IMG/VR virus record: IMGVR_UViG_3300018018_000019
Coordinates: 1 to 38,307 of that record
DNA from: a virus
Lineage: Duplodnaviria; Caudoviricetes
DNA: 38,307 nucleotides
Strand: one strand, 5' to 3'
A program made the position numbers and the translations under genes. The notes beneath the pieces were generated by a model. That model was given only the letters and a program-made list of their open reading frames with translations. It ran no database searches and had not been told where the DNA came from. This document shows positions 306 through 36,634 of this stretch, piece by piece (the stretch's first letter is position 1; every line of letters starts with the position of its first letter).

Positions 306-2315
306 CTATTTCTGCGAGGCCATTTCTTTCCACACAGCCCTGTAATCACCCCAAGATTTTAAACTCTCAAAATATATGCCTTCTCTATCCCCTGTCCAGT
401 TGCCTTTATGCCGGATATCAACCGATGGCTGAATCGCCCGGTATTCCTCAATGTAATATTTTGGTCCCTTCGGCTCAAATTTTGGCTGAGGCCTGCGTGC
501 CTGCCTTGCCGATTCTCGTGGTGGATAAATGATTGACCAGTCCGAGGTAAAGTCCCCGATAGTCGGTTCGCACCTGTCAATCTCTCCGCCGGCGTCGATA
601 TGTTTTATACGATGCGTAAGCCATTCAATAAGCAGCTCCCTCGGCGCCACCATCATACTGAGCAGTTCGCCAGGTGATTCTTTGATGTATCCCCGCCGAG
701 TCAGCCAGACAACATTCAAATCGAAATAAAACGTATCATCTCTCGGAGGCATGAAAGCGAAATGCGAAGGGTGATAAAGAACATCGTGCTCGGCGATATA
801 AATAAATCTCGCATCTTCCGCATCGCTTACGCCCATCAGAAGTTGCTCATAATAAGTCCTGTGGCACGGCTGCTTGTTATTGTCGCGCGGCACAAATATC
901 ACTCGCTTGTCAATCGGCATATTTTTCAAATGCTCGATGCAGGTCTCGATGACTGATTTTTCGCCAAGTCCCGATGTGCAGCAGACAATCGTCGGCCCGC
1001 CTGAGCCATATACGATTGCCTTTGTATCCCATTCCGGCAGCGGCATAAATTGCGCTGCTAACCATCCGATTCTGTCGTGGTATTTTTCGACCATTCGCAA
1101 TTTGAATTCCCCGACAGGCAGAATTTTCGCATCGTATAATTTATGCTCGTGATTTGTCCCGAATATATGCCAGCAAATCACATCTTTTCTTAAAACCACT
1201 TTGCCGTCTGTATCGAGTTGAATTTTGAAGGACCATTCCGGACCATCGTAACCATATTCACCAAGCGATTCATCGTAACCTCCTAATCGTTCGAAATCCG
1301 TTTTACGTATCATCCAGGCGCATCCGGTGAATCCCATCATCGGCTCAATAAGGTCTCCGCCCGTCGGCATTTTCGAGGTATGCCATTTCTCCTGGCAATC
1401 CGGGCTGATATATACGAACCCGTAATCCCCCGGCAGTTCCGTCTCGAAATCCTCCGCCATTGATTTGATTCTGGCGACCGCTATTGTGTTTTCATCGCAG
1501 GCGCATTTCAGGCGCGTGTCCCATCCTTCACTCATTCGGCAGTGTGCATCGATGATAAATATATAGTCCCCCGTCGCCCGCTTCACCGCATCATTGATTC
1601 CCTTGCGCCTCCCTTGCGGTATCGGATGTGTAATAACTTTCAATTCTCCCCACGATGCAAGCGGTTTTATAGGGTCGGCAAACCCATCAACAATTACGAT
1701 TATCTCTAATTTGCCAGTTGCAGTTCCAAACAAACTTGTAATCGTCTTATTAAACCACTCCGCATTTTCATTTCTCCCGATTATAATCGCCGAGGTCTTA
1801 GCCCCGACCACCTCCCAGAAGTTCCTCGGCGGATATTTTTTGAGCTTCGGATAAGTGGTCGGGTTCGGGCAACCCTTCTCGCTTTCTAATTTGTTCTTCA
1901 CGCCAAGATAACACTCGCAATATGGGCATCTGTCAATCCCCCCGCACGTCGAGCAGCAGACAATCCGCTCTGCGAATACCTTTTCATCGACTATCGCAAA
2001 ACCTTCTTTTACCGCCCTTTTCGCAGCCCCGAACAGTTCCGAGGCCAGCGTTCTAAGGCCAAGTGTATTCTGCATCATCGCCTGCTGACGAACAGGAATT
2101 ATTGGATTGATTAATTTTTGGCGGCTGATGTTTATTCCGCGTGCTCTTAAAAGATTTATCCTCTCATCATTTAACGGCATTGGCGCGACTACCATTCCTG
2201 CCGGATTTATTGTCTTGCCATCCCAGTTGCCCTTACATACATTATCACACCACGACACAGGCACGTGTTTCTTTACTATTTCACAATAACCATTTTTTAA
2301 TTCGCAATTTCTCAT
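306..2315 (-). CDS. Multidomain glycosyltransferase: Cys-rich N-terminus, GT-A domain resembling polypeptide GalNAc-transferases, second GT-A-like domain
   Basis: IIIGRNE, IIVIVDG, ATGDYIFIIDAHC (DxH), FERLGGYDESLGEYGYDGPEWSFK, ICWHIF; second domain IYIAEHDVLY; N-terminal ERIVCCSTC...CPYCECY...CP. Confidence 0.85.
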   Translation of the reverse strand: MRNCELKNGYCEIVKKHVPVSWCDNVCKGNWDGKTINPAGMVVAPMPLNDERINLLRARGINISRQKLINPIIPVRQQAMMQNTLGLRTLASELFGAAKRAVKEGFAIVDEKVFAERIVCCSTCGGIDRCPYCECYLGVKNKLESEKGCPNPTTYPKLKKYPPRNFWEVVGAKTSAIIIGRNENAEWFNKTITSLFGTATGKLEIIVIVDGFADPIKPLASWGELKVITHPIPQGRRKGINDAVKRATGDYIFIIDAHCRMSEGWDTRLKCACDENTIAVARIKSMAEDFETELPGDYGFVYISPDCQEKWHTSKMPTGGDLIEPMMGFTGCAWMIRKTDFERLGGYDESLGEYGYDGPEWSFKIQLDTDGKVVLRKDVICWHIFGTNHEHKLYDAKILPVGEFKLRMVEKYHDRIGWLAAQFMPLPEWDTKAIVYGSGGPTIVCCTSGLGEKSVIETCIEHLKNMPIDKRVIFVPRDNNKQPCHRTYYEQLLMGVSDAEDARFIYIAEHDVLYHPSHFAFMPPRDDTFYFDLNVVWLTRRGYIKESPGELLSMMVAPRELLIEWLTHRIKHIDAGGEIDRCEPTIGDFTSDWSIIYPPRESARQARRPQPKFEPKGPKYYIEEYRAIQPSVDIRHKGNWTGDREGIYFESLKSWGDYRAVWKEMASQK

Positions 2316-2325
2316 ATTCTCATAT

Positions 2326-3057
2326 TTATGACATCAACGGATGAAGGCCAACACTTCCTCCAGTTACCGGGCCGCTACATGATATACATCCGGGATAAAG
2401 TCCGCAGCCATCATATTCTGTGCATTGTTCATAACACAATCTTGCATCTTCAGGAACGTCCTCATGAGAAAAAGACGGATAACCACAACACTGATTACTT
2501 CCGCCGAAGAAATCACAAAAATTTGGAGTATCCATTCTAAAAAAGGTTCGGTTATGATTATACGTGTGTGTAATATCGACCATTCCATAATATACAACCT
2601 TTGTAAATTCGTAAAGATTAGATACATACCAATATACGGTAGGGCCATAATACTCGTAGGTTATTCCGAATTGTTCACAATCTCCCTCTAAAATAAAACT
2701 GCCATTTAATAAATTTGCTCCATCATAATAACCGGGAAGCGAAGGGGGCCAACCAGGGCATGGGCAATCGTTAAAGGTTCCCGGATACGCACATATAGTT
2801 GGGTCAAGTGGATCGCATTTGACGCTTACAGGAAGAGGAGGATGAGCGCAATTGCCTATATCTGACGCCTCTAACAGAATATATCTTGGAACACCGTATG
2901 GGAAAGTATCGGCGCATACGGGGCATTCCGTAAGTGTTTCATAAGTCGTTGTCCCAGTCGTGGTAGTCGTGGTAGTCGTGGTGGTAGTCGATGAGCAGCA
3001 GGTTTTGCACCGCTTGCCATCCTTCATCAGTCGCTTATTGTCTTTCCTATATATCAT
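2326..3057 (-). CDS. Cys-rich protein with N-terminal poly-Thr tract, probably virion-associated
   Basis: 243 aa, many Cys, CCSSTTTTTTTTTTTGTTT; tightly packed between neighbours. Confidence 0.7.
   Translation of the reverse strand: MIYRKDNKRLMKDGKRCKTCCSSTTTTTTTTTTTGTTTYETLTECPVCADTFPYGVPRYILLEASDIGNCAHPPLPVSVKCDPLDPTICAYPGTFNDCPCPGWPPSLPGYYDGANLLNGSFILEGDCEQFGITYEYYGPTVYWYVSNLYEFTKVVYYGMVDITHTYNHNRTFFRMDTPNFCDFFGGSNQCCGYPSFSHEDVPEDARLCYEQCTEYDGCGLYPGCISCSGPVTGGSVGLHPLMS
2956..2990 (-). repeat. 9-bp tandem repeat encoding the Thr run
   Basis: (AGTCGTGGT)x3 on the + strand. Confidence 0.8.
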
Positions 3058-3059
3058 GT

Positions 3060-3956
3060 TTAACAGGTTGTCGCGTCATCGATTATCAGGTTTGGCGCCG
3101 TCCACGTGCCATCTAATTCGTGCAGAACCGTAAGTGTATCACCGGCGGTCAGTTTCGGGTCAACATTGCCTGAAAGTGCATTGCTTCCGAGAATTATTTG
3201 GGGAGAGACTGTTATTGTAGAGGCCGCCAAAGACCAACTGCCGCCGGTATATCCCCATAATTTGCAGGTAAATGAGGATGCCTCTACCGATTGAATTTGT
3301 GCGGTGCGCGTAGCTCCTGCTGCGGTATCTGGGATGCCAATCCATTTGAAGCTACCGCCGAATAGTTCGACTGTACCGCTATCGTCTATCTCTACTTCTG
3401 CTCCCGCCTGCGACCACCCTAAATACGTCATTTCAGCATCGCTGAAGACATCAGTTAGCACAAATGTCCCGTTAAGAGTTTCATCTGATACACCGGCTAC
3501 TGTAATAATTTGTCCTTCTTCAAAGGCGGTATTTAGAGCTATCGCTGCCTCCACAAGGCCGCTGCCATCTCTGGCTATTACTATGATATCAACTCCGCCG
3601 ATAGGCAATTTTGTGGCCAGTAGTCTAACCTCGACGTCGAGGTTATGTTGGTCTTCTTCTGTAGGACAATTCTCATATAGGTTTAAGACTTCGACAATTT
3701 CTTCTGGGTCGCCATCTTCCTCAAACTTATCGACCGGGCCGCCGAGCCAATTCTCTGCCACTAATTTAAGCTTCTTACAGTTATACACGCCTGAACCGGC
3801 AGCATTTGATACGACCTCAAATACCTTGGTATTTTCTGCATCGGAGAGTGGATATCTTATCGCTCGCATGGCCTGAACGAATTCGCCGGGGGCGAGCTGC
3901 TCGTGCCTGGCAGCCAGGTCAATCTTGTCGATTTGATGTTGAGTTTCCGGTCTCAC
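3060..3956 (-). CDS. Putative tail/structural protein
   Basis: Acidic, beta-rich; FEEGQIITVAGVSDETLNGTFVL resembles a small beta domain of phage tail proteins; 4-bp overlap with upstream gene. Confidence 0.55.
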   Translation of the reverse strand: MRPETQHQIDKIDLAARHEQLAPGEFVQAMRAIRYPLSDAENTKVFEVVSNAAGSGVYNCKKLKLVAENWLGGPVDKFEEDGDPEEIVEVLNLYENCPTEEDQHNLDVEVRLLATKLPIGGVDIIVIARDGSGLVEAAIALNTAFEEGQIITVAGVSDETLNGTFVLTDVFSDAEMTYLGWSQAGAEVEIDDSGTVELFGGSFKWIGIPDTAAGATRTAQIQSVEASSFTCKLWGYTGGSWSLAASTITVSPQIILGSNALSGNVDPKLTAGDTLTVLHELDGTWTAPNLIIDDATTC

Positions 3957-5563
3957 GGGATTTGCTCCACGGTTGCGGTCAGGCCGGCGATAGCATCGGG
4001 GCCAAGGGCGTCGGCGATGGCGGCGGCGTAATCGGTATTCTGCGACTCGCCGAAGTTAGCGGCGAAACTTCGCACGCAGAATTTGCGCCTCGAGCCGTGG
4101 GAATAGGCCGGGCTTTCCCACTGAAATTCGCCGTGGCCTCTGAGACCGTAATCGATAACGGCATCGGGCGCCGCGAAATTGAAGCCGGCGCCTGAATCGA
4201 TATAAACATTGAAGCCCGTCGGTGCGATTTCCTGGTCTGTTGGCGTGTATCGCCAGCGGAGAAGCACCTTGCCGCCCGCCAGGGGCATCGCCATCAAAGA
4301 TAACGGCTTATTAGGAGTCAACGTCCGCATTTCGCCGTCGGCGTCGATTTTAATGATGCAGACCGGGGAGTCGTGGCTTTCAAGTCCGCACGGAGCGACC
4401 TGGCGGCGGATAAAATGCCAGATAGTATTAGCCGGCAAGGTCTGACTCGGTATTGCGACCTGCGTGTCGTTGAGGTTCATCATTGCCACGGCCTGATAAT
4501 CGCCGGCTCCGTCCTGCCTTCGATAAATCCGGTGCCCGCCGATAAAAACGAAATTTGCAATTAAGGTGTAGTCATCGTCAACGGTAACGGTAATCGTTGC
4601 ATTTGATGGGTCTGTTGTTTTCCCCGCAGATACTGCGGTGCCGCTCCATCCTGTGAATTTATATCCTTTATGCGCAGTGACTGTTAGCTCGATTTGGCTC
4701 CCTTTATTCACTTCAATTACGCCGTCCTGCGGAGCGACCGACCCATGCTCGGATGTTACCGTTAAAATACTATGAGGAAATGATTCCACAGAATCTGAAA
4801 CTCCCCCATCTTCCATAGACCACTGACCAAAAAAATTGTATTGTTGGAGATATGCTTTTATTTCTCCCCATATATCCCAGACGCCGTCCGTCAGTGACTT
4901 AAACAGGAATGTTTCCGCTAATGTCTCGGTATCGCTTATGGCTGAATCGTCGTCGTTAAATTCCAGATAACATCCGTCGTTGCACATAACAGCAAATGCC
5001 TCTGGGTTTACAGTGGCACCATTGCCATTATTATAAATAGCAGAAATTTCATCCTGAGATAAAATTTTGTCTTTATAATACCTGAACTGATCAAAGTAAG
5101 TAGTATTTAGGTGCGTATGGGGGTTGCCGCCATGATTGAACTCTATCAAAGACGGAGTTATTACTGTTGCGGCAAGCGATGATATGTCCGCAGAACCAAT
5201 GAGAATTCCATTTATATATAAATTCATAAGCCCATCGCGGTTGAAAGTGGCAACCACGAAGATATTTGTATTGTTAACATAAGAACTGCTGGTAATTTCT
5301 ATATAATTGGCCGGGTTGTCGTCCTGACTCATTATGCATCGCCATACACCTCCACCCGTATCAGGGTCAAACCAGATCATAACCAACGGTCCGCTGTTGC
5401 CTATCCCCTGCCTTAACTGAAATAGGGTATAATCGGTCCCCTGGCATCCTTCGTTGTTGTTTTGCCACCAAAAACACATGCTGAAGTCGCATAAATCTGG
5501 GTTAAAAAAATCTTCATAAAGGAAGATTTCACCGCTGATTCTGGCCTTTATTCTTTTACCCAT
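3953..5563 (-). CDS. Putative adhesin: LamG/ConA-like lectin + InlB B-repeat-like + FN3-like domains
   Basis: FVVATFNRDGLMNLYING...FDQFRYYKDKILSQDEISAIYNNG (LamG); GYKFTGWSG...DYTLIANF (B-repeat); VLLRWRY...GFNVY...KFCVRS (FN3). Confidence 0.75.
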   Translation of the reverse strand: MGKRIKARISGEIFLYEDFFNPDLCDFSMCFWWQNNNEGCQGTDYTLFQLRQGIGNSGPLVMIWFDPDTGGGVWRCIMSQDDNPANYIEITSSSYVNNTNIFVVATFNRDGLMNLYINGILIGSADISSLAATVITPSLIEFNHGGNPHTHLNTTYFDQFRYYKDKILSQDEISAIYNNGNGATVNPEAFAVMCNDGCYLEFNDDDSAISDTETLAETFLFKSLTDGVWDIWGEIKAYLQQYNFFGQWSMEDGGVSDSVESFPHSILTVTSEHGSVAPQDGVIEVNKGSQIELTVTAHKGYKFTGWSGTAVSAGKTTDPSNATITVTVDDDYTLIANFVFIGGHRIYRRQDGAGDYQAVAMMNLNDTQVAIPSQTLPANTIWHFIRRQVAPCGLESHDSPVCIIKIDADGEMRTLTPNKPLSLMAMPLAGGKVLLRWRYTPTDQEIAPTGFNVYIDSGAGFNFAAPDAVIDYGLRGHGEFQWESPAYSHGSRRKFCVRSFAANFGESQNTDYAAAIADALGPDAIAGLTATVEQIP

Positions 5564-7360: not shown

Positions 7361-7740
7361 CAATTTCCCCCCATCGTCGCTACGCCGCACGGGATGCGGT
7401 TATCGAATAATATTCCCTGCCCGGTTTTGTCGATGAATTTCTTGCGTAATGATATCTCCGCAAGCATCTCTTTAGCATCGATTGCCCGCCCCTCGTTATA
7501 TGCCTTCCATTTTTCGATGTCCGCAGTGAGATAGTAGCCGTCCCGGCTGTTGGCGACAATCATTTCGCCGTTGTCGCGGAGCTGCTTGACCAGCGCCCGT
7601 ATATGCCGCCTTTGCGACTCGTGGCAGCCGGCGATTCCGAGGTGCACGGCGATTTCTGCAGCCGTCATAAACTTATCGGCCCGCTTTAAAATCCCCAGGC
7701 ATTCCGCCACCTGGTCAGTTGTTATATTCGGCTCATTCAT
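7360..7740 (-). CDS. Winged-HTH DNA-binding protein, possible middle/late regulator
   Basis: MTAAEIAVHLG...RHIRALVKQLRDNGEMIVANSRDGYYL; ATGA overlap start at 7740. Confidence 0.75.
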   Translation of the reverse strand: MNEPNITTDQVAECLGILKRADKFMTAAEIAVHLGIAGCHESQRRHIRALVKQLRDNGEMIVANSRDGYYLTADIEKWKAYNEGRAIDAKEMLAEISLRKKFIDKTGQGILFDNRIPCGVATMGGN

Positions 7741-8543
7741 GCGACTTTCACCTTGCTCTGCTCGGTAATTCCGCTGCCGCATTTCGGACAACGGTCTAAC
7801 GGCGGCCTGCTATCGGATGACCAGCCGCATTGAAAACATTCGAATCGGGCGGGCCTTTGAAATTCGTGGCCATTGGATAACTTCCGAATCAAGGTGTTTT
7901 GCTTGCGATGTTCAACGGCCCTCGCGTGAGCATATAACCGGACCTCAGGTGAATGACCATTTCGTCTCAGGTTACCTGCCCGGTCAATCAGGATAAGATT
8001 ATTCGGATCATCGTTCATTGTATCCTTGTCGGCGTGGATCGGGAAAAATCCTCGCGGTATCGGCCCGTATGTCTTTTCATAAATATACCTGGCATATTGA
8101 ATCCACCTGTCTCGCGGCCTGCCATCGTCTTTAATCTTTATCCATTGAGACGGAACCTTCCTTCTTCTGCCGTGCTTTTCGCCGTTGAGTTTTGACTTAT
8201 GATAACGAACGGAAATAAAACCAATATGCCGATATTTCTGTGCGGCGTTGCCTCTTATTTGGCCTGGCTTAAATCGTGTCTCTGCCGAGCGACCGCCTGC
8301 GCAGAAATGCGTCCCTTTATTCCACATTTTATGGCCCGGCTGCCATCGATATTCTTTGCCGGCACGACTTAAATGCAATCGGCGAATCCGGTCGAATTCC
8401 TTTTTGGTTAACCGGCTTAACAGGATGTTGTGAATTGTGTCGTAACCTGTTTCGTATTTGCGCCTAAGCGAATCGACACCGACGCCCTCGACCCATTCAC
8501 AGGCAATCTTCGCTGAATCAACTATGGCATCCTTTTTACTCAT
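7737..8543 (-). CDS. HNH-like protein with C-terminal Zn ribbon
   Basis: WQPGHKMWNKG, TRFKPGQ, RYIYEKTYGPIPRG...HADKDTMNDDPNNL; CFQCG...CPKCG. Confidence 0.7.
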   Translation of the reverse strand: MSKKDAIVDSAKIACEWVEGVGVDSLRRKYETGYDTIHNILLSRLTKKEFDRIRRLHLSRAGKEYRWQPGHKMWNKGTHFCAGGRSAETRFKPGQIRGNAAQKYRHIGFISVRYHKSKLNGEKHGRRRKVPSQWIKIKDDGRPRDRWIQYARYIYEKTYGPIPRGFFPIHADKDTMNDDPNNLILIDRAGNLRRNGHSPEVRLYAHARAVEHRKQNTLIRKLSNGHEFQRPARFECFQCGWSSDSRPPLDRCPKCGSGITEQSKVKVA

Positions 8544-11011: not shown

Positions 11012-13001
11012 TTTTTAATTTTGAAAAATCAAAATTGATTTCGGTCGTATCTTCCTTTGATTTTAATGATGAAAAGTCGATATCCAGCACCGTTTCTACT
11101 GATTCCGCCCCGGCCGCCCTTCGCACGTGCTTGAGCACTTCGAGCCGTTTGTGTTCCGATACCTGGTTGTTTAAAGGCGTGATGACTGGTCTTATCGCCG
11201 CCTGCGTTGGATTGATTTCGGAGCGAAGCGCAGACCTCACAGTCGTTTGTAATTTTTCGGAGGAAAATTCTTGCGAGGCACGTCTCGCTCTGATGGCGAG
11301 GTCCGTCAAATCCATAGTCGCGGTTAATGATTTGTCGCGGAATTGTTTTGCGATATTGACTGCCCGGCGCTTCTCGGTCGAGGCCTCGCGTAAGTCCTCC
11401 TCCGCGACGCCGGCGCCGTATTGAACTAACCGTGCCTGCTCGGCGATTGTGATTAACCGCAGCGTCGCCGAATCGTAAACGTAAATCCGGGACATATCCG
11501 CCGGGTCATAACAGCAGCGGACCTTCTGGCCCTTATGTGCTGCTAATTCCATATCGTATTGGCCGAAATATAGTCCCTTGAATTGCACGCCGTTTTTGCC
11601 GACGATCAATTCCGGCGACCATACCCGCATCAATAAATCCGATACGCCTTCCTGCATAATTCGTCGGCTGGTCCGCGTATTGAATATCTGCATCGGCGTC
11701 CGGTCTTCCATTCCCCAGCCGGTATGGAGCGAGTGATTATATGTCTCGACGTATTTGGCGAAGACCTGCTCGAAACTATCGAGGGTGTAAGCCCCGACTA
11801 TTGTGCCGGGGTCGCTCAGCGTTTCCCGCAAATCATCTGGCTTGTCATCCGCATATTTGCCGGCGTAAGTTGCGATTGTCTTTGTGAACTGATTATCGAC
11901 GGTGTCAAACCAGCGTTCGAGAATACCCTTTGATTGCGGGTGATATGGGATTGCGAATGATACCGCGACATTCATATATCCCCACAGCCCGGCTAACCAT
12001 TGCTCATCAAGATACCCTCGGCCCAGGGCACGTCGCTGCTTCTTAGTTTGTCCCGTCCACATTTGAGAATCATAGTCGCGGCCGTTGTCGATCTTGACCG
12101 AGTCGGGCAGGCCGTATTTATCCACGGCATTTTTCGCGGCTAATAGAATTGTCGTCTGATTAGGCGAGGTCGATATATGCCAGCCGACTAAGGCCCTCGA
12201 GCGCATATCCATCCAGGCCGTAACCCAGGGACGCACCCACTGGTTACGATATCGAATCCAGCAGTTGAATTCCGCATGGTCGCCCACCCAGATTTGCCCG
12301 GGCGCTATTGAGTCGGGGTCAGTGATTATATAAGGGGCGAATTTCGCCTCGTATGCCGCCATCCCTTCACGCAGCAGGGTTTGAACGTATGCCGGTATCG
12401 CCTTATCGACGAATCGATACATCACGTTAAGGGATGGTATCTTCCAGTTTTTTTGCTGGTCCCGGTTGATAAAACTGACCGTTTGCCAGCACATTTTAAC
12501 CGTCTGTTTTTGTTTGGTCAGATACAGCGATTTAAAATATTCCCAGGCATCGGGTGAGATTACATCGTTTACGTTCGGCCTGCCTCGTTTATCGACTAAG
12601 CCGAGGATACCCTGCTCTTTATAAAGCGATATCCAGCGATGCAGCGTCCGGACGGGTATTTGTTTTTGCGTGGCGAAATCAATAATCGCATCGAGCCGGT
12701 TCTTGCCTTCGCGTTTGTAAGCGGCCGCGAATTTCTCACATTCGGCAATTATTCCCAGCCGCTTGATTGCCTCGTCTCTTTTAGGTGCTGCGATATCCTT
12801 CAGTTCTTCCGAATTACGAGCGACCAGTGACGAGTCACTTATTAGGTTGGGATGCGAATCAGCCGGTATCTGCCAGTCACCATTCCTTTTAAACGCTCCG
12901 GGCAGTTTGTTCTGGGCGGCCAACTGCTGCACTCGCCCGATACAATATCCCAGGCGGTTTGCGGCCTCAGTCACTGTCAACATAGCATTAGTCATTGCCA
13001 T
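11001..13001 (-). CDS. muA: MuA-like DDE transposase
   Basis: N-terminal excisionase-type HTH, RTLHRW, WVGDH, KIDNGRDY, SKGILERWF, Mu C-terminal CYDPADMSRIYVY. Confidence 0.95.
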   Translation of the reverse strand: MAMTNAMLTVTEAANRLGYCIGRVQQLAAQNKLPGAFKRNGDWQIPADSHPNLISDSSLVARNSEELKDIAAPKRDEAIKRLGIIAECEKFAAAYKREGKNRLDAIIDFATQKQIPVRTLHRWISLYKEQGILGLVDKRGRPNVNDVISPDAWEYFKSLYLTKQKQTVKMCWQTVSFINRDQQKNWKIPSLNVMYRFVDKAIPAYVQTLLREGMAAYEAKFAPYIITDPDSIAPGQIWVGDHAEFNCWIRYRNQWVRPWVTAWMDMRSRALVGWHISTSPNQTTILLAAKNAVDKYGLPDSVKIDNGRDYDSQMWTGQTKKQRRALGRGYLDEQWLAGLWGYMNVAVSFAIPYHPQSKGILERWFDTVDNQFTKTIATYAGKYADDKPDDLRETLSDPGTIVGAYTLDSFEQVFAKYVETYNHSLHTGWGMEDRTPMQIFNTRTSRRIMQEGVSDLLMRVWSPELIVGKNGVQFKGLYFGQYDMELAAHKGQKVRCCYDPADMSRIYVYDSATLRLITIAEQARLVQYGAGVAEEDLREASTEKRRAVNIAKQFRDKSLTATMDLTDLAIRARRASQEFSSEKLQTTVRSALRSEINPTQAAIRPVITPLNNQVSEHKRLEVLKHVRRAAGAESVETVLDIDFSSLKSKEDTTEINFDFSKLKNGR
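11236..11278. repeat. Palindromic REP-like element, copy inside the transposase CDS
   Basis: CCTCACAGTCGTTTGTAATTTTTCGGAGGAAAATTCTTGCGAGG matches copies at 16590 and 26083. Confidence 0.8.
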
Positions 13002-16520: not shown

Positions 16521-16589
16521 TGTGACAAAAACTCAATTCTTGCCTCAAAAACAAGGATTATTAGCGAAGTTCCACTGTATGGAACGTAG

Positions 16590-16632
16590 CCCCGCAGTCG
16601 TTTGAATTTTTCGCAGGAAAATTCTTGCGGGG
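16590..16632. repeat. Palindromic REP-like element
   Basis: CCCCGCAGTCGTTTGAATTTTTCGCAGGAAAATTCTTGCGGGG. Confidence 0.8.
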
Positions 16633-16645
16633 GAAAGGAATCCGT

Positions 16646-26082: not shown

Positions 26083-26128
26083 GCCCCGCAGTCGTTTGAA
26101 TTTTGTTAAGGCAAAATTCTTGCGGGGC
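26083..26128. repeat. Palindromic REP-like element
   Basis: GCCCCGCAGTCGTTTGAATTTTGTTAAGGCAAAATTCTTGCGGGGC; diverged relative at about 26742-26782. Confidence 0.8.
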
Positions 26129-26263
26129 CAGGCGAGCGATGCTCTTTGATATTTGTAATTTGATTTACCCCTGCCTGGTTCGACAGGCCGGGCAGGGTAT
26201 CTGTAAAATCGGGAAAGTTTAGTTCGGATTCGATTTTATTAACGATATTTGAAAGGCAAAAAA

Positions 26264-27547: not shown

Positions 27548-28093
27548 ATGAAAAAGATACTTATTCTGGTAGCGATGGTGTTGATGCTTTTTGTTTGCCG
27601 GGCACAGGCGGCCTACGACAAAACGGGTTTTCAAACTTCCGAAGCCAGGAAGGCAATATCAGAAGACATAACCGGACTTGAATACGACTCAAGGTTGGGT
27701 ATTTTCAGACTGACCTCCGGTTATTTTATCCCAACTGACGCCAACACAAAACAGTCACAACTTACTAATATTACTGATGTCAATGTGAGGGATATCAACG
27801 CCCGCAATATCGATGCTTGCGATGTGAATATAAAAGGGACATTGATAGGCGTTACGGCGGCGAATTTAAGAACATTATTGGGCGAGGTAAGAGGCGCTAC
27901 CGGCGCATTGACTGGCGATAAAGTAATAACACATGGATTAGGGGCTGATCCTAATGTCATTGCACAGACGCCGGACCCGAATGTTAAGATAAAAGTTATA
28001 GCTCATGATGCCACCACATTTACTCTTCGGCCTTTGGATGTTAACGATATAAATATTGCCGCTACAAATGCCTCTTGGATTGCATGGAAATGA
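27548..28093 (+). CDS. Secreted fibre-like protein with D-x-N motifs
   Basis: Signal peptide MKKILILVAMVLMLFVCRAQA; eight D-x-N plus one DAC; VITHGLG...TTFTL fibre-tip-like end. Confidence 0.75.
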   Translation: MKKILILVAMVLMLFVCRAQAAYDKTGFQTSEARKAISEDITGLEYDSRLGIFRLTSGYFIPTDANTKQSQLTNITDVNVRDINARNIDACDVNIKGTLIGVTAANLRTLLGEVRGATGALTGDKVITHGLGADPNVIAQTPDPNVKIKVIAHDATTFTLRPLDVNDINIAATNASWIAWK

Positions 28094-28857
28094 AAATATA
28101 TACAAAATTATTTTTGGTTTTTTTGATCATTCTGTGTTTGTTCAAAACCCAGCCACTTTTCTCAATAGCGAATCCTGCAGGGCCAAGCGGCTCACGATGG
28201 GGCAGCATCCGGGGCGATATCAACGACCAGAATGATCTGAAAACTACCTTAAACGCAAAATTGTCCGGCGTGCCGGATGCCTGTGCTTCACTCTGGAATG
28301 GCAAGACGACTATTGCTGATGCCTGCCAGACCTTATGGAACAGCAAAACCGCCATAGCAGACGCCTGCCAAATATTGTGGAATAATAAAATTTCCGGCGT
28401 GCCGGATGCCTGTGCTTCGCTTTGGAACGGCAAGACAACAATCGCTGATGCATGCCAAACCTTATGGAACGGCAAAAAAGATGTGAATTTATATGATGGC
28501 GATGAGCATCTTCTGGCTACCGTTTATGATGTGAATATGACGGCAGGCGCAGCCGCAACCACTCTTTATACCGCGCCGGGCGATGCGAATTTTATCCCGA
28601 CAAGAGTTTTAATTTACAACGTCAATAACTCTTTGGCGGGAGGATCTTCGTATACTTTTACTGGATTGCCAGCGGGGCAAAATCTCATTTCTATGACCAC
28701 ACCATATACACTGTATCGAATCTTAACTTTGCTCCCCGGTGGCTCTATGGTTACTACTGTCGTCGCCGCCGGAAATCCATTCACAATTACAATAACAACG
28801 GGTTCGACCGCAACTGCATTGGCTACAATCAAAGTTTACGGAGTGCTGATACGATAA
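28090..28857 (+). CDS. Secreted protein with five 14-15 aa DAC..LWN repeats and a beta-rich C-terminus
   Basis: Signal-like N-terminus, WGSIRGDINDQNDL, repeats with synonymous DNA changes; ATGA-coupled. Confidence 0.75.
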   Translation: MKIYTKLFLVFLIILCLFKTQPLFSIANPAGPSGSRWGSIRGDINDQNDLKTTLNAKLSGVPDACASLWNGKTTIADACQTLWNSKTAIADACQILWNNKISGVPDACASLWNGKTTIADACQTLWNGKKDVNLYDGDEHLLATVYDVNMTAGAAATTLYTAPGDANFIPTRVLIYNVNNSLAGGSSYTFTGLPAGQNLISMTTPYTLYRILTLLPGGSMVTTVVAAGNPFTITITTGSTATALATIKVYGVLIR

Positions 28858-33501: not shown

Positions 33502-33894
33502 ATGGCAACTGCCCTGACAACTGCTTTTGGTTTTGAGATAAACGTCTCCGACCAGCCGAGAATCGCCGAGATTCAGTTTGTCGGTTTCCCCGGCGCCCAC
33601 GGTGTTACCTCGATGCACTTAGGCACTCGAGGCAGGCCGTTTAAAATTACCGGCAAGCTCGCAACTACCGGCAACGGCTTCGATGCCGCATTAGCCAATC
33701 TCAAGACCTGGATTGCCGAGCTCGAGCTTTTAACTTATTCACCCGCCGCCGATTACACATATCACGGACAGACCTTCAGCAATCTTCAGTTTATCAAACT
33801 GGACATCATCGCCGACGGATCAGGCAGGCAATATCATTTTACTTCAGCCAACGTATTTTGTAATTTCGTTATGCACGGGCATATCCTGATATGA
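33502..33894 (+). CDS. Distal tail protein-like
   Basis: FPGAHG...GTRGRPFKITGKL; follows the tape measure. Confidence 0.6.
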   Translation: MATALTTAFGFEINVSDQPRIAEIQFVGFPGAHGVTSMHLGTRGRPFKITGKLATTGNGFDAALANLKTWIAELELLTYSPAADYTYHGQTFSNLQFIKLDIIADGSGRQYHFTSANVFCNFVMHGHILI

Positions 33895-36161
33895 CAACAC
33901 CGGATTCTAAAACTTTAAGCAGGACAGGCCAGCGGCTCATCGTCGAGTATCGTAAGGCCTTCGGCAACCCGCCCAAATATCCGCCCGCGTGGCAGCCGCT
34001 CTGGGATGTCAAGGTTGACCGTATCGAAATCAATCAGGGTGCAAAGCCGTCAGTTGCGACAATCTGGTTTCCCGACACTCGCTGGGATAAAAATCCTCCT
34101 ATTTCACTCGGCGACACTATTCATATTCGGACCGACCAGCAAAATCCTGAAAATCGGACGATTCTTTTTGTCGGCTATGTCACTAATCACCCCGTCGAAT
34201 TTTCAGGCGGCTCTGCAAGTCCGGGCGCCGGCTTCGAGCGTAACGCCCTTGTCTGTATGGATCATCGCTGGGTTTTCGCGGCCTGCTCGATTATATTCGG
34301 TCAAATCAGCCGCAGCCCTGATGATTATATGGTATTTACGCCTTCTGAACCGATTCCCGACAGATACACATATTTGACCGGTCAGCGCTTGATTTTCAAT
34401 CCCAACGGCAAATCAAATATGGACCCGCAGGAATTGACCAGCGATTTAAGGCCGCCTTTCCCCGATATGCCGATTTTCTGCAATCCCGGCAATAAGACGG
34501 CGTTATCCTGGACCGCACGCGATATGATTCGCTATATATTGTCCCCTCGCTGGCGTAAAATCTCACAATATCTCCCCATCGAAGACCCCGCCGCCATAAC
34601 AGGGCTTGAGGTTATGGCCGATAGCTCCGAGGACAAGAAAAATTGGGGCAAAATCCTTAAACATATTGTTATCGATGGTATCAATACCATCGAGGCGCTC
34701 GAGGTCGTATGCCGGCACGTCGGCTGGGATTTCCGGCTCGATTACACAAATGATGGCTCGACCAATTTTGTTTTTTACAAAGTCGGCGTCCGTGACAAAT
34801 TAGAACGGTCAGATAGTCCCGTTATAAGCCATTCTCTTCACGCCCCGGCCGTAGGCGAAGATATATCCGCCGCCGTCGCCGAAGGCCGCAAAATGCTCTG
34901 CTCGATGTCTTTGAGTCAGGATATCGCCCCTGTCATAAATAATCCCTTCGCTCTCGGAGCTCCTCATCGTTTCGAGTTCACCGCTGAATTGGTCCCGGCC
35001 TGGATGGATTATTATCTGGCGTTTGATATACAGGACCTCTCCAAATTATTTTATACTGATGCCGACCTGCAGAAGATTTCCAATCCCGATTCACTTACGT
35101 ATTATTCTTTTTATCATTCTCGCGGCTCACATTACAATCAAAATGCTAATTACCGCAACGTCGGCCGCAAATGGGCGCTCAATGAAGCCGGAACTTATAC
35201 CGACCCATTTACCGTCCCTGACGATGGCAAGCAGCATTATGATCGCGGACAACCCTTCGATTGGGATACCGTTCTGCCCGCCGATTATATTCTTGATAAA
35301 ATAACCGGCCGGCGTATGTTCGCCCGTTATAATCGCCGTTTGCTTCCCTGCCTGACTGTCCTGCAGGATGGCCTTAGCTCGGTCGGAATCAAGCTCGAAT
35401 TCAGTTTCGATGGTGGAGTAAACTGGCAGATCATTCCCTGCTCGGTTCGTCTATTAGATAGCGAATGTGGAATTTATATTGATGAGCCAAATATTGCCGA
35501 AATCGTCGACAAGGCCGAAGGATTTTTACCCAGCGGTTCCGCTGGCGGTATCCTGCATGGACAATCGTTAAATTTGTTCACGTCGCTTTGCGATGACCGG
35601 GTCAATACCAATGATTTTTTGACCGGCCTTCCTCTCGGTCATAATCGCCGATTCAAGGATGGCCAGTGGCGCACCCGATGCCGTATTACAGCCAGCGTCC
35701 AGATGGACCTGCGCGTTATCGCTATGGGGATTCCCTCGCCTTCCTCCGGCTCTCCTTTCGACCAGTCCCAGATTTACGACTGGAGTGATAAATACGGTCT
35801 GTCCAAGCGAGCCGATTCCAGCACTTATAAATCCAGTTTTCTTAATGCCCGCGAGGTCGATTCCCGCGATGAGGCGACCGCCCACGTGGACGCTATTCGC
35901 CGCAATAATGAAGATATGTCAATCAGCGGCCGCTTTACGCTGGATAGATTGTGGTTGGGAGATGGCCAAGGTGTCCCGGCTTTTATGGTTGGTGACGCCG
36001 TAAGCGGCATTACCGGCCGGGAGTATATGCTTGATAATTTGACCTTTGAGGGCGGCAAGACCTCGCCGGAAATTATTCAGATTATTTATCTGCCCGAAAT
36101 GCAAAAACAAGTCCTGATTACCCGCGACCTTCGTTATGCGGCCAATAAAGTTGACGTATGA
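33891..36161 (+). CDS. Baseplate hub/tail tip protein
   Basis: 756 aa; LGDTIHI, ILFVGYV, TIEALEVVC, FMVGDAVSGI hub-like motifs; synteny. Confidence 0.65.
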   Translation: MTTPDSKTLSRTGQRLIVEYRKAFGNPPKYPPAWQPLWDVKVDRIEINQGAKPSVATIWFPDTRWDKNPPISLGDTIHIRTDQQNPENRTILFVGYVTNHPVEFSGGSASPGAGFERNALVCMDHRWVFAACSIIFGQISRSPDDYMVFTPSEPIPDRYTYLTGQRLIFNPNGKSNMDPQELTSDLRPPFPDMPIFCNPGNKTALSWTARDMIRYILSPRWRKISQYLPIEDPAAITGLEVMADSSEDKKNWGKILKHIVIDGINTIEALEVVCRHVGWDFRLDYTNDGSTNFVFYKVGVRDKLERSDSPVISHSLHAPAVGEDISAAVAEGRKMLCSMSLSQDIAPVINNPFALGAPHRFEFTAELVPAWMDYYLAFDIQDLSKLFYTDADLQKISNPDSLTYYSFYHSRGSHYNQNANYRNVGRKWALNEAGTYTDPFTVPDDGKQHYDRGQPFDWDTVLPADYILDKITGRRMFARYNRRLLPCLTVLQDGLSSVGIKLEFSFDGGVNWQIIPCSVRLLDSECGIYIDEPNIAEIVDKAEGFLPSGSAGGILHGQSLNLFTSLCDDRVNTNDFLTGLPLGHNRRFKDGQWRTRCRITASVQMDLRVIAMGIPSPSSGSPFDQSQIYDWSDKYGLSKRADSSTYKSSFLNAREVDSRDEATAHVDAIRRNNEDMSISGRFTLDRLWLGDGQGVPAFMVGDAVSGITGREYMLDNLTFEGGKTSPEIIQIIYLPEMQKQVLITRDLRYAANKVDV

Positions 36162-36634
36162 GCGCCAATATAACCTTACAATTCGTTGCACCTTTCGATT
36201 CGCAGCCGGGCGATTACGCGGAGTTATGCGGTAATGGAGGCGCTGGCGATATCGATTACGAAGCGCCGCTTCTCGGCGGCCGCAGGTTCGATTTATGCCC
36301 GCAGGGTGGCGGCGTTTATGGCTGGGGCTTTGCCCCTTGGGGAGATTTTCCATGGGGCGACTGCCTGGCTGTTCGATGCCTCGGCTGGGGCGAATTGCCG
36401 TGGGGATTTTTCCCGTGGGGTTATGGCGGCATTCTGATTGAGGCGATTGTCAAAGTCGATTTCTGCGGCGACTACAAATTCGCCTTTGCCGCCTTCGATT
36501 CTTTGGACAATCCCGACGTGGGCGACCCGGAGGAAATAACTGTCGAGGTCCACACCGCCCCGCCCACCCCCACGGGCCTGCGTAAAGTAAGTTATGACCC
36601 GGATACCGATATCCTGGTCCTGGAGGCCGCGTAA
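36158..36634 (+). CDS. FN3-like tail protein with a Trp-Gly repeat insert
   Basis: GWGFAPWGDFPWG...GWGELPWGFFPWG; YKFAFAAFDSLDN; PPTPTGL. Confidence 0.65.
   Translation: MSANITLQFVAPFDSQPGDYAELCGNGGAGDIDYEAPLLGGRRFDLCPQGGGVYGWGFAPWGDFPWGDCLAVRCLGWGELPWGFFPWGYGGILIEAIVKVDFCGDYKFAFAAFDSLDNPDVGDPEEITVEVHTAPPTPTGLRKVSYDPDTDILVLEAA

Follow-up and report, generated by a model that had tools for sequence, protein, structure and literature searches.

A GT27-like transferase encoded beside a threonine-run protein in a Mu-like phage: a candidate system for O-glycosylation of a predicted tail tip

The virus record IMGVR_UViG_3300018018_000019, whose full 38,307 nucleotides (nt) we analysed and refer to as the window, carries a gene pair in which a glycosyltransferase (P0001) is encoded directly after a cysteine (Cys)-rich protein with a threonine (Thr) run (P0002). 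As sequence comparisons and structure models suggest, the phage probably O-glycosylates this run on its own predicted tail-tip protein by means of the transferase encoded in the next gene. The transferase is part of the genome of a Mu-like tailed phage, estimated to be 75% complete: the minus strand holds genes for MuA transposase, a MuB-like AAA ATPase, Gam and GemA (Pfam), and the plus strand those for terminase, portal, protease, capsid and tail proteins (including PHROGs assignments). A preliminary description of the sequence had named the pair as a candidate O-glycosylation system, and had proposed structural comparison of each transferase domain and a survey of co-occurrence with Thr-run genes. 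The motifs that it had listed are all present on the minus strand, namely IDAHC...GW (D256-H258, window 1542-1550), GGYDESLGEYGYDGPEWSFK (residues 345-364, 1224-1283) and WHIF (382-385, 1161-1172) in the first transferase domain, IAEHDVLY (E509-D511, 783-791) in the second, and the Thr run upstream.

Domain 1 of P0001 is most similar to the eukaryotic polypeptide N-acetylgalactosaminyltransferases (ppGalNAc-Ts, family GT27), as had been suggested from the motifs. It matches PF00535 with 54.5 bits (curated cut-off 23.3), a broad GT2-like model of the GT-A fold that does not specify the acceptor. The seven best PDB matches found with phmmer are all ppGalNAc-Ts (best expectation value, E, 4.7e-8), and a profile of 46 relatives ranks 15 GT27 chains at the top (E 9e-25 to 4e-15), the first other glycosyltransferase following at 2e-10. 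Comparison of the AlphaFold model by Foldseek returned ppGalNAc-Ts in all the matches listed. With VIA-align, the top 29 PDB entries belong to this family, which includes GalNAc-T1 (1xhb/8v9q), GalNAc-T2 (6e7i) and Toxoplasma GalNAc-T3 (8ujg); the best match has Z 26.2 and a root-mean-square deviation (rmsd) of 2.8 Å over 262 aligned residues, and the next family reaches Z 20.2.

The likeness extends to functional residues. In GalNAc-Ts a DxH motif and a distal His bind Mn2+ (available text of PMC11074326), and the corresponding D256, H258 and H383 are kept in 77/77, 76/77 and 76/77 domain sequences, respectively. According to the accessible part of 10.1101/2020.06.25.171371, F280, W282 and F361 of GalNAc-T2 build the +1 peptide pocket; W311 and F385 align with the latter two, and the F280 position reads E309. 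Counted from the alignment of the 46-relative profile, the GalNAc-T2 residues retained are E147, D176, D224, H226, K281, W282, G332, E337, H359 and F361. By sequence and model, domain 1 carries the ppGalNAc-T fold, its metal site and two of the three peptide-groove aromatics. The Thr-run partner is a further parallel, as Toxoplasma GalNAc-T3 glycosylates Thr stretches (PMC11074326, in the portion available). On the same grounds, domain 1 is GT27-like rather than a member of GT27, because the membrane anchor, the lectin domain and several GalNAc-contact residues are missing. The maximum 19-residue hydropathy is 1.41 and lies within the catalytic domain, and in the model the C-terminus takes an alpha/beta GT-A fold and not that of a ricin-type lectin. 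Unlike the ppGalNAc-Ts, to which it is about 20% identical, the phage protein appears soluble and adds a Cys-rich N-terminus and a second transferase domain.

The putative acceptor P0002 fits its earlier portrayal as a Cys-rich neighbour with a Thr run. It contains 19 Cys, and its open reading frame (ORF) ends 10 nt upstream of that of the transferase. The tract SS-T11-G-TTT (residues 22-38) directly follows an N-terminal L..DG..C..CC motif shared with other tips. Serine (Ser) and Thr make up 17 of 20 residues in the run, a density reached in 0/5000 shuffles of the protein (shuffle maximum 13), and a chance origin was rejected. Because the Thr codons vary (ACT, ACC and ACG), the run is not a single-base assembly slip; an artefact is also contradicted by matching contigs from other sequencing runs. 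The stretch is present in three DNA runs labelled as peat metagenome, one of them possibly its source. Contigs of the two others, X2 and X3, cover it in part and match without differences; one X3 contig crosses the Thr run, and contigs of both bridge the 10 nt that separate the two genes. Reading the window's ORF lists by eye revealed no further Ser/Thr tract.

P0002 has neither a Pfam or PHROGs assignment nor a usable match in the Atlas, and a homologue search returned only the protein itself. It is 41-42% identical to the partner of the transferase in the related locus L333 (alignments A5 and A8). Pairwise BLASTP against the partners in L001 and L002 was not significant, and a profile built from the four partners recruited no additional members; homology of the tips is therefore based on position, the common N-terminal motif and the identity to L333. 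In L001, L002, L333, L006 and L007 the partner genes close tail or baseplate operons, and P0002 is quite likely to be located in the tail tip of the virion. The proposal that the neighbour is a virion protein is supported by these relatives; in the window itself the genes stand on the early strand.

Enzyme and tract also occur together beyond this phage. A first count (18 Ser/Thr in 30 residues, any ORF of 100 amino acids (aa), both strands) found a tract in 8/8 close loci, 32/74 distant loci and 9/80 poly-Gly control loci. We then grouped 121 loci into 78 clusters at 70% identity, leaving out the window's own record, and kept those with at least 1 kb upstream: 13/21 close clusters with the N-terminal domain, 5/10 close clusters without it and 47/47 distant ones. 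A tract on the same strand within 500 nt was present in 12/13 close clusters with the N-terminal domain, a figure to be read with the reservation that the tract filter was chosen after inspecting the first loci and that clusters are non-independent events; the partners contain 2-10% Cys. The other counts were 2/5 for close clusters without the N-terminal domain and 37/47 for distant clusters within the fetched locus (about 6 kb per side), 17 of them within 500 nt. Tracts were never found on the opposite strand only. Among the controls, 3/80 poly-Gly loci had a tract, and 74 tail-region loci (905 kb) held 0 tracts and 0 transferases. These counts support the proposed co-occurrence with Ser/Thr tracts in relatives.

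Of the ten distant exceptions, seven (including both complete genomes) show Ser/Thr-Pro repeat matches at other places in their records; the other three show none and come from records that are 11-35% complete. Control records gave only scattered single matches, in 4 of the 17 searched out of a set of 20. In a quick tree of 66 phage rows, a single 99% branch separates enzymes with Ser-Pro repeats (37/47 on one side) from those with pure Thr/Ser or Thr-Pro runs (15/19 on the other), the two sets coming from different scans. Tract type hence appears to follow enzyme clade, which is no proof of co-evolution. Partners in the distant clade (L009-L082) are Ser-Pro repeat proteins, with up to 108 pattern matches per genome, this number being from one complete genome; in place of the N-terminal domain, these enzymes have an insert with four Cys within their catalytic domain (A2 consensus).

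A natural control is provided by phages with similar tips. A search with the second gene upstream of the tip, taken from L001, L002 and L333, returned 8 loci, of which two were L001 and L002 themselves and one (L466) was dropped for its other layout. The remaining L462, L463, L465, L467 and L468 have a Cys-rich tip gene with neither Ser/Thr run nor transferase, as does the Mu-like relative L391; four sister loci of L391 were not counted, being cut short or without a visible tip gene. The tips of L391, L462 and L463 start with an L..DG..C..CC-type motif like that of P0002, and the run after it is absent. Run and enzyme are thus both present in four tips and both absent in six similar ones (p 0.005, a value inflated by the positives having been found through the enzyme and being mutually kin). 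Because the six tips without transferase also have no Thr run, run and enzyme likely travel together.

Three of these six phages keep the N-terminal domain of P0001 as a separate gene, so that it is likely an older partner of the tip that now carries the enzyme. It is encoded alone in the gene after the tip in L467 and L391 (profile hits) and in L463 (alignment), and stand-alone copies also occur in the control loci L217, L281 and L094, behind Cys-rich genes with poly-proline (poly-Pro) or poly-Thr runs. Since such copies sit behind Cys-rich tips without a transferase, the domain appears to follow the Cys-rich tip and not the transferase. Its second half has seven invariant positions in 25 relatives and shares the pattern ER..C..C....C..C.C....K....CP with DUF6171 (PF19668), which was also an Atlas lead; 5/25 aligned relatives match this family in Pfam (best E 1e-7), and the copy in P0001 falls below its threshold. 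DUF6171 is usually a small stand-alone protein, unlike the version fused to a transferase here. The simplest reading is that the domain acts as a tip accessory factor (in folding, metal loading or assembly), to which the transferase was fused upon gain of the run, and it is likely a targeting or chaperone module. The adjacency of stand-alone domain gene and same-type tip in transferase-free phages lends indirect support to the idea that the enzyme docks on its substrate through this domain, towards which we lean slightly.

Two variants of this arrangement were observed. In L342:5427-7047, L217:5665-6881 and L281:4930-6866, poly-Pro replaces the Thr run in the Cys-rich tip gene that precedes the N-terminal domain, and in L342 the domain is fused to a transferase. 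The row L094:838-4863 consists of a Cys-rich poly-Thr tip, a stand-alone DUF6171-like gene, a radical S-adenosylmethionine protein, a PF11397 GlcNAc-transferase and a 2-oxoglutarate-Fe(II) oxygenase, a candidate second route that possibly runs via hydroxyproline.

Domain 2 has no Pfam match, and sequence searches name no family for it. Modelled separately from 68 sequences (predicted template modelling score, pTM, 0.83), it adopts a GT-A/nucleotidyltransferase fold, with a best structural match of Z 11.6 (rmsd 3.2, 159 aligned). The suggestion of a second GT-A-like domain is supported by this model as to fold; as to family, the top rows lie within 1 Z unit, a tie between GT-A enzymes and IspD/MobA-type nucleotidyltransferases. 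Residues E509, D511 and Y514 are invariant in 68/68 sequences and H636 is kept in 64/68, giving, in the style of GT-A enzymes, a late His and an E-x-D that follows strand four. Domain 2 accompanies domain 1 in 37/47 distant clusters (25 fused, 12 separate), in 0/80 poly-Gly loci and in 0/74 tail-region loci, and stands alone in 2/185 fetched proteins, a set biased to domain 1. That it extends the glycan is plausible, and we hold it to be slightly less likely than not.

Put together, these data suggest the following course. The Cys-rich Thr-run gene lies just upstream of the gene for a soluble three-domain protein, whose domain 1 has by comparison the fold, metal site and groove aromatics described above. 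In the host cytoplasm, during assembly, domain 1 would use Mn2+ and a nucleotide sugar of the host (probably a UDP-N-acetylhexosamine) to attach the first sugar to Thr/Ser hydroxyls. We consider these first three steps to be jointly probable, on the strength of sequence and model. The N-terminal Cys-rich domain would guide the enzyme to its substrate and thereby do the work that in the animal enzymes falls to the lectin and the Golgi anchor; domain 2 might perhaps add a second sugar. The glycosylated run would then form a stalk, stiff and resistant to proteases, that joins the N-terminal anchor motif of the virion tip to its distal Cys-rich module.

Several observations weigh against this proposal and lend themselves to other explanations. 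In the window, the block forms the end of the early (MuA/MuB) strand, outside the late operon. The target of the enzyme could be phage DNA or a glycolipid, protein or surface glycan of the host, in which case the Thr run would be incidental. This would suit the GT2 assignment of domain 1 in Pfam, the location of the block behind the early genes of a temperate Mu-like phage, and domain 2, whose matches to polysaccharide and teichoic-acid transferases are as good as any others. Of the close clusters without the N-terminal domain, 3/5 are tract-free, two of them among non-structural genes; at the level of single loci, L357, L363 and L366 have no tract nearby, and the relatives in L363 and L366 lie among non-structural genes. 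DNA glucosylation and serotype conversion are given as the usual roles of phage glycosyltransferases in the available text of PMC12619734. Yet such a target seems improbable to us, given that domain 1 is nearer to the peptide-modifying GT27 enzymes than to any GT2 enzyme by 6 Z units, that P0001 has no membrane segment, and that run and enzyme go together in 12/13 clusters against 0/74 controls and are both absent in the six similar tips. The early-strand position and the absence of any family assignment for P0002 would also suit an acceptor that is not part of the virion, for instance one acting on the host surface in lysogeny. This is very improbable in our view, as P0002 has no hydrophobic export segment, partners in relatives end tail or baseplate operons, and the late operon of the window ends at 36634 without a tip gene of this kind.

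It might also be argued that the run is a hitch-hiker, an unmodified spacer that merely shares a swappable cassette with the transferase. Cassettes are common to kin, poly-Pro stands at the same place in L342 and L217, and the full enzyme with N-terminal domain in L342 adjoins a Cys-rich poly-Pro protein without a Ser/Thr run. In addition, the enzyme family was found near only 2/80 poly-Thr loci. A glycosyltransferase of any Pfam family was encoded within the next genes downstream (up to three) in 4/32 poly-Thr loci (0/36 controls, p 0.04), leaving 28/32 poly-Thr phage genes without a recognisable one just downstream. Nevertheless, the enzyme is kept while its partners are unrelated (Thr runs, Ser runs, Ser-Pro repeats, different scaffolds), the tract in the distant clade may be kilobases off or elsewhere in the genome, and tract type goes with enzyme clade, so that mere hitch-hiking seems improbable to us.

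A different division of labour, by contrast, is a real possibility, although we give it less than even weight: the partner would be glycosylated, with domain 2 serving another acceptor, a non-sugar cap or donor activation instead of extension, and/or the sugar would not be GalNAc. This explanation is compatible with the proposed course up to the guiding of the enzyme by its N-terminal domain. Besides the tie in structural matches, it is favoured by the distribution of domain 2, which is present in 4/31 close clusters (fused in 3 and separate in 1, with many truncated contigs in the set) and absent from L001, the closest locus and a complete one with a Thr run; it is also missing from the proteins P0005 and P0010, and the C-terminal domain of P0009 is of another kind. 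The explanation is favoured as well by changes at positions that we take to contact the donor, namely R201, R208, R362 and E334 of GalNAc-T2 and the WGGENxE motif. Of GalNAc-T2, R201, R208, F280, E334, N335 and R362 are not retained, W331 being replaced by Tyr and E334 by Asp; the three Arg positions read P233, I240 and G386, with an invariant R237 nearby, and WGGENxE reads YGYDGPE, identical only at the G332 and E337 positions. GalNAc is therefore only tentatively suggested as the donor. Against a different role of domain 2 stand its E-x-D and late His, its presence with domain 1 in the distant clusters and in none of the controls, and the separate glycosyltransferase and sugar-synthesis genes at the same place in other relatives.

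The closest known system is virion glycosylation in mycobacteriophages. It was reportedly described for Che8 and Rita by Freeman et al. in 2023, according to citing passages. There, phage-encoded glycosyltransferases are predicted to O-glycosylate the phages' own structural proteins, with glycans on capsid and tail-tube C-termini and genes far from their targets (available text of PMC11256854 and PMC12619734). The system proposed here differs in that the Thr run is a dedicated one on a predicted tail-tip protein, that the transferase gene is adjacent and that the enzyme is GT27-like. Two GT-A domains per chain also occur in the E. coli K4 chondroitin polymerase (2z86) and the Pasteurella heparosan synthase (8vh8), which the whole model matches with Z 18-20; those enzymes polymerise on a glycan primer, whereas P0001 has a GT27-like domain 1 and a domain 2 that is optional in the family. 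Our literature searches, assessed from listings and the beginnings of abstracts, brought up no paper on DUF6171, on poly-Thr substrates in phages or on an enzyme of ppGalNAc-T type encoded by a phage; CAZy tables, supplements and subscription papers lay outside their scope.

With regard to the family itself, a word-based search returned 37 proteins, and among 1.84 billion representatives there were 251 clusters (50% identity) at E <= 1e-30 and 9,097 at E <= 0.001. Alignment queries yielded 508 viral stretches (the best 80 of which were analysed), 38 metagenome loci and 2 GTDB loci, whereas a single-protein scan of viral contigs gave no matches; nor did tblastn against 50,697 GenBank phage records. 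By these searches, the enzyme family is one of uncultured phages. Because the closest GTDB relative of the enzyme sits in a Planctomycetota bin (on a 40.6-kb contig), a planctomycete host is likely for the phage. Genomes with the pairing of tract and enzyme range from 40-kb phages up to contigs of 300-350 kb. In two large contigs, L003 (350 kb) and L005 (298 kb), paralogous Cys-rich genes flank the transferase, some with up to about 140 Ser in runs and some without a run. Downstream of the transferase, L006:7053-11851, L007:6820-12466 and L336:7049-9286 contain more glycosyltransferases, methyltransferases and a UDP-GlcNAc 2-epimerase or GDP-mannose dehydratase-like gene, which can be read as larger glycan-building clusters.

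The gene pair forms the end of a five-gene minus-strand block that runs from 6772 down to 306, after the early genes (Table 1). None of the five genes has a PHROGs match, and a scan for promoters and terminators performed no better than chance. The predicted adaptor matches L001:3850-4539 (E 6e-8) and a gene of L333 (E 6e-6) in BLASTP, and the C-terminus of the predicted adhesin is related to a gene upstream of the transferase locus in L342 (E 4e-8); similarity between window 33891-36161 and L342:2872-5013 was not significant. In five related Mu-like phages (L387-L391) the first block gene likewise comes after the early operon; the window shares with them the beginning of a layout that places the predicted tail-tip block opposite in strand to the late operon. 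A tail-tip block on the early strand is unusual among Mu-like phages.

Table 1. Positions of the transferase pair, its parts and the other genes of the block in the window.
Feature	Positions	Strand	Basis
Three-domain glycosyltransferase P0001, 669 aa	306..2315	-	ORF; Pfam PF00535, E 1.8e-14; model with predicted local distance difference test (pLDDT) 77
N-terminal Cys-rich domain, aa 1-168, 11 Cys	1812..2315	-	Alignments A6, A9; DUF6171-like second half
Domain 1, aa 170-432, ppGalNAc-T-like GT-A catalytic domain; D256/H258/H383, W311, F385, E360	1020..1808	-	
Domain 2, aa 436-669, GT-A/nucleotide-diphospho-sugar-transferase fold	309..1010	-	Model, pTM 0.83; conservation
Cys-rich predicted tail-tip protein P0002, 243 aa, likely acceptor	2326..3057	-	ORF; identity to L333 partner
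Mucin-like tract SS-T11-G-TTT	2944..2994	-	Sequence; shuffle test
Predicted tail-tip adaptor, precedes the tip gene in relatives too	3060..3956	-	BLASTP
LamG and InlB-B-repeat protein, predicted tail-associated adhesin	3953..5563	-	Pfam PF13385, PF18998
First block gene; short motif common to many phage proteins	5570..6772	-	Related-locus search, gene maps

Elsewhere in the window, a 50-nt element occurs in three copies that are 62-100% alike (16589-16638, 26083-26132 and 11235-11284). Two intergenic copies fold as hairpins (z -4.5 at 26083 and -1.5 at 16589) and the third lies in frame in the 3' part of MuA; the element may serve in late regulation or belong to the small palindromic repeats. 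An ORF at 28075-28857 without a PHROGs match contains tandem repeats of about 14 residues (DAC..LWN.KT.IA; DNA repeat D1), and an HNH endonuclease with a C-terminal zinc ribbon (Pfam) is encoded within the early operon at 7737-8543.

If the proposal holds, the pair would be the counterpart in phages of mucin-type O-glycosylation, its enzyme and acceptor both named and an assay ready to use; so far, judging from our searches and the available parts of citing papers, glycosylation of tailed-phage virions has been shown in mycobacteriophages. It would also offer a testable role for DUF6171-like proteins and for a new GT-A family, and would touch on how GT27 arose. Small, soluble and free of both anchor and lectin, such enzymes would be of use for O-glycoprotein production in the bacterial cytoplasm. 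In its most far-reaching form, which we think rather unlikely, the system would be a self-contained phage mucin-type pathway, in which a fused DUF6171-like chaperone aims a lectin-less cytoplasmic GT27-like initiator at tail-tip Thr runs, on which the glycans are then extended by a second GT-A family, itself new. Outside the eukaryotes, the initiating enzymes would then be the nearest kin of GT27, and they may point to the origin of mucin-type initiation in animals.

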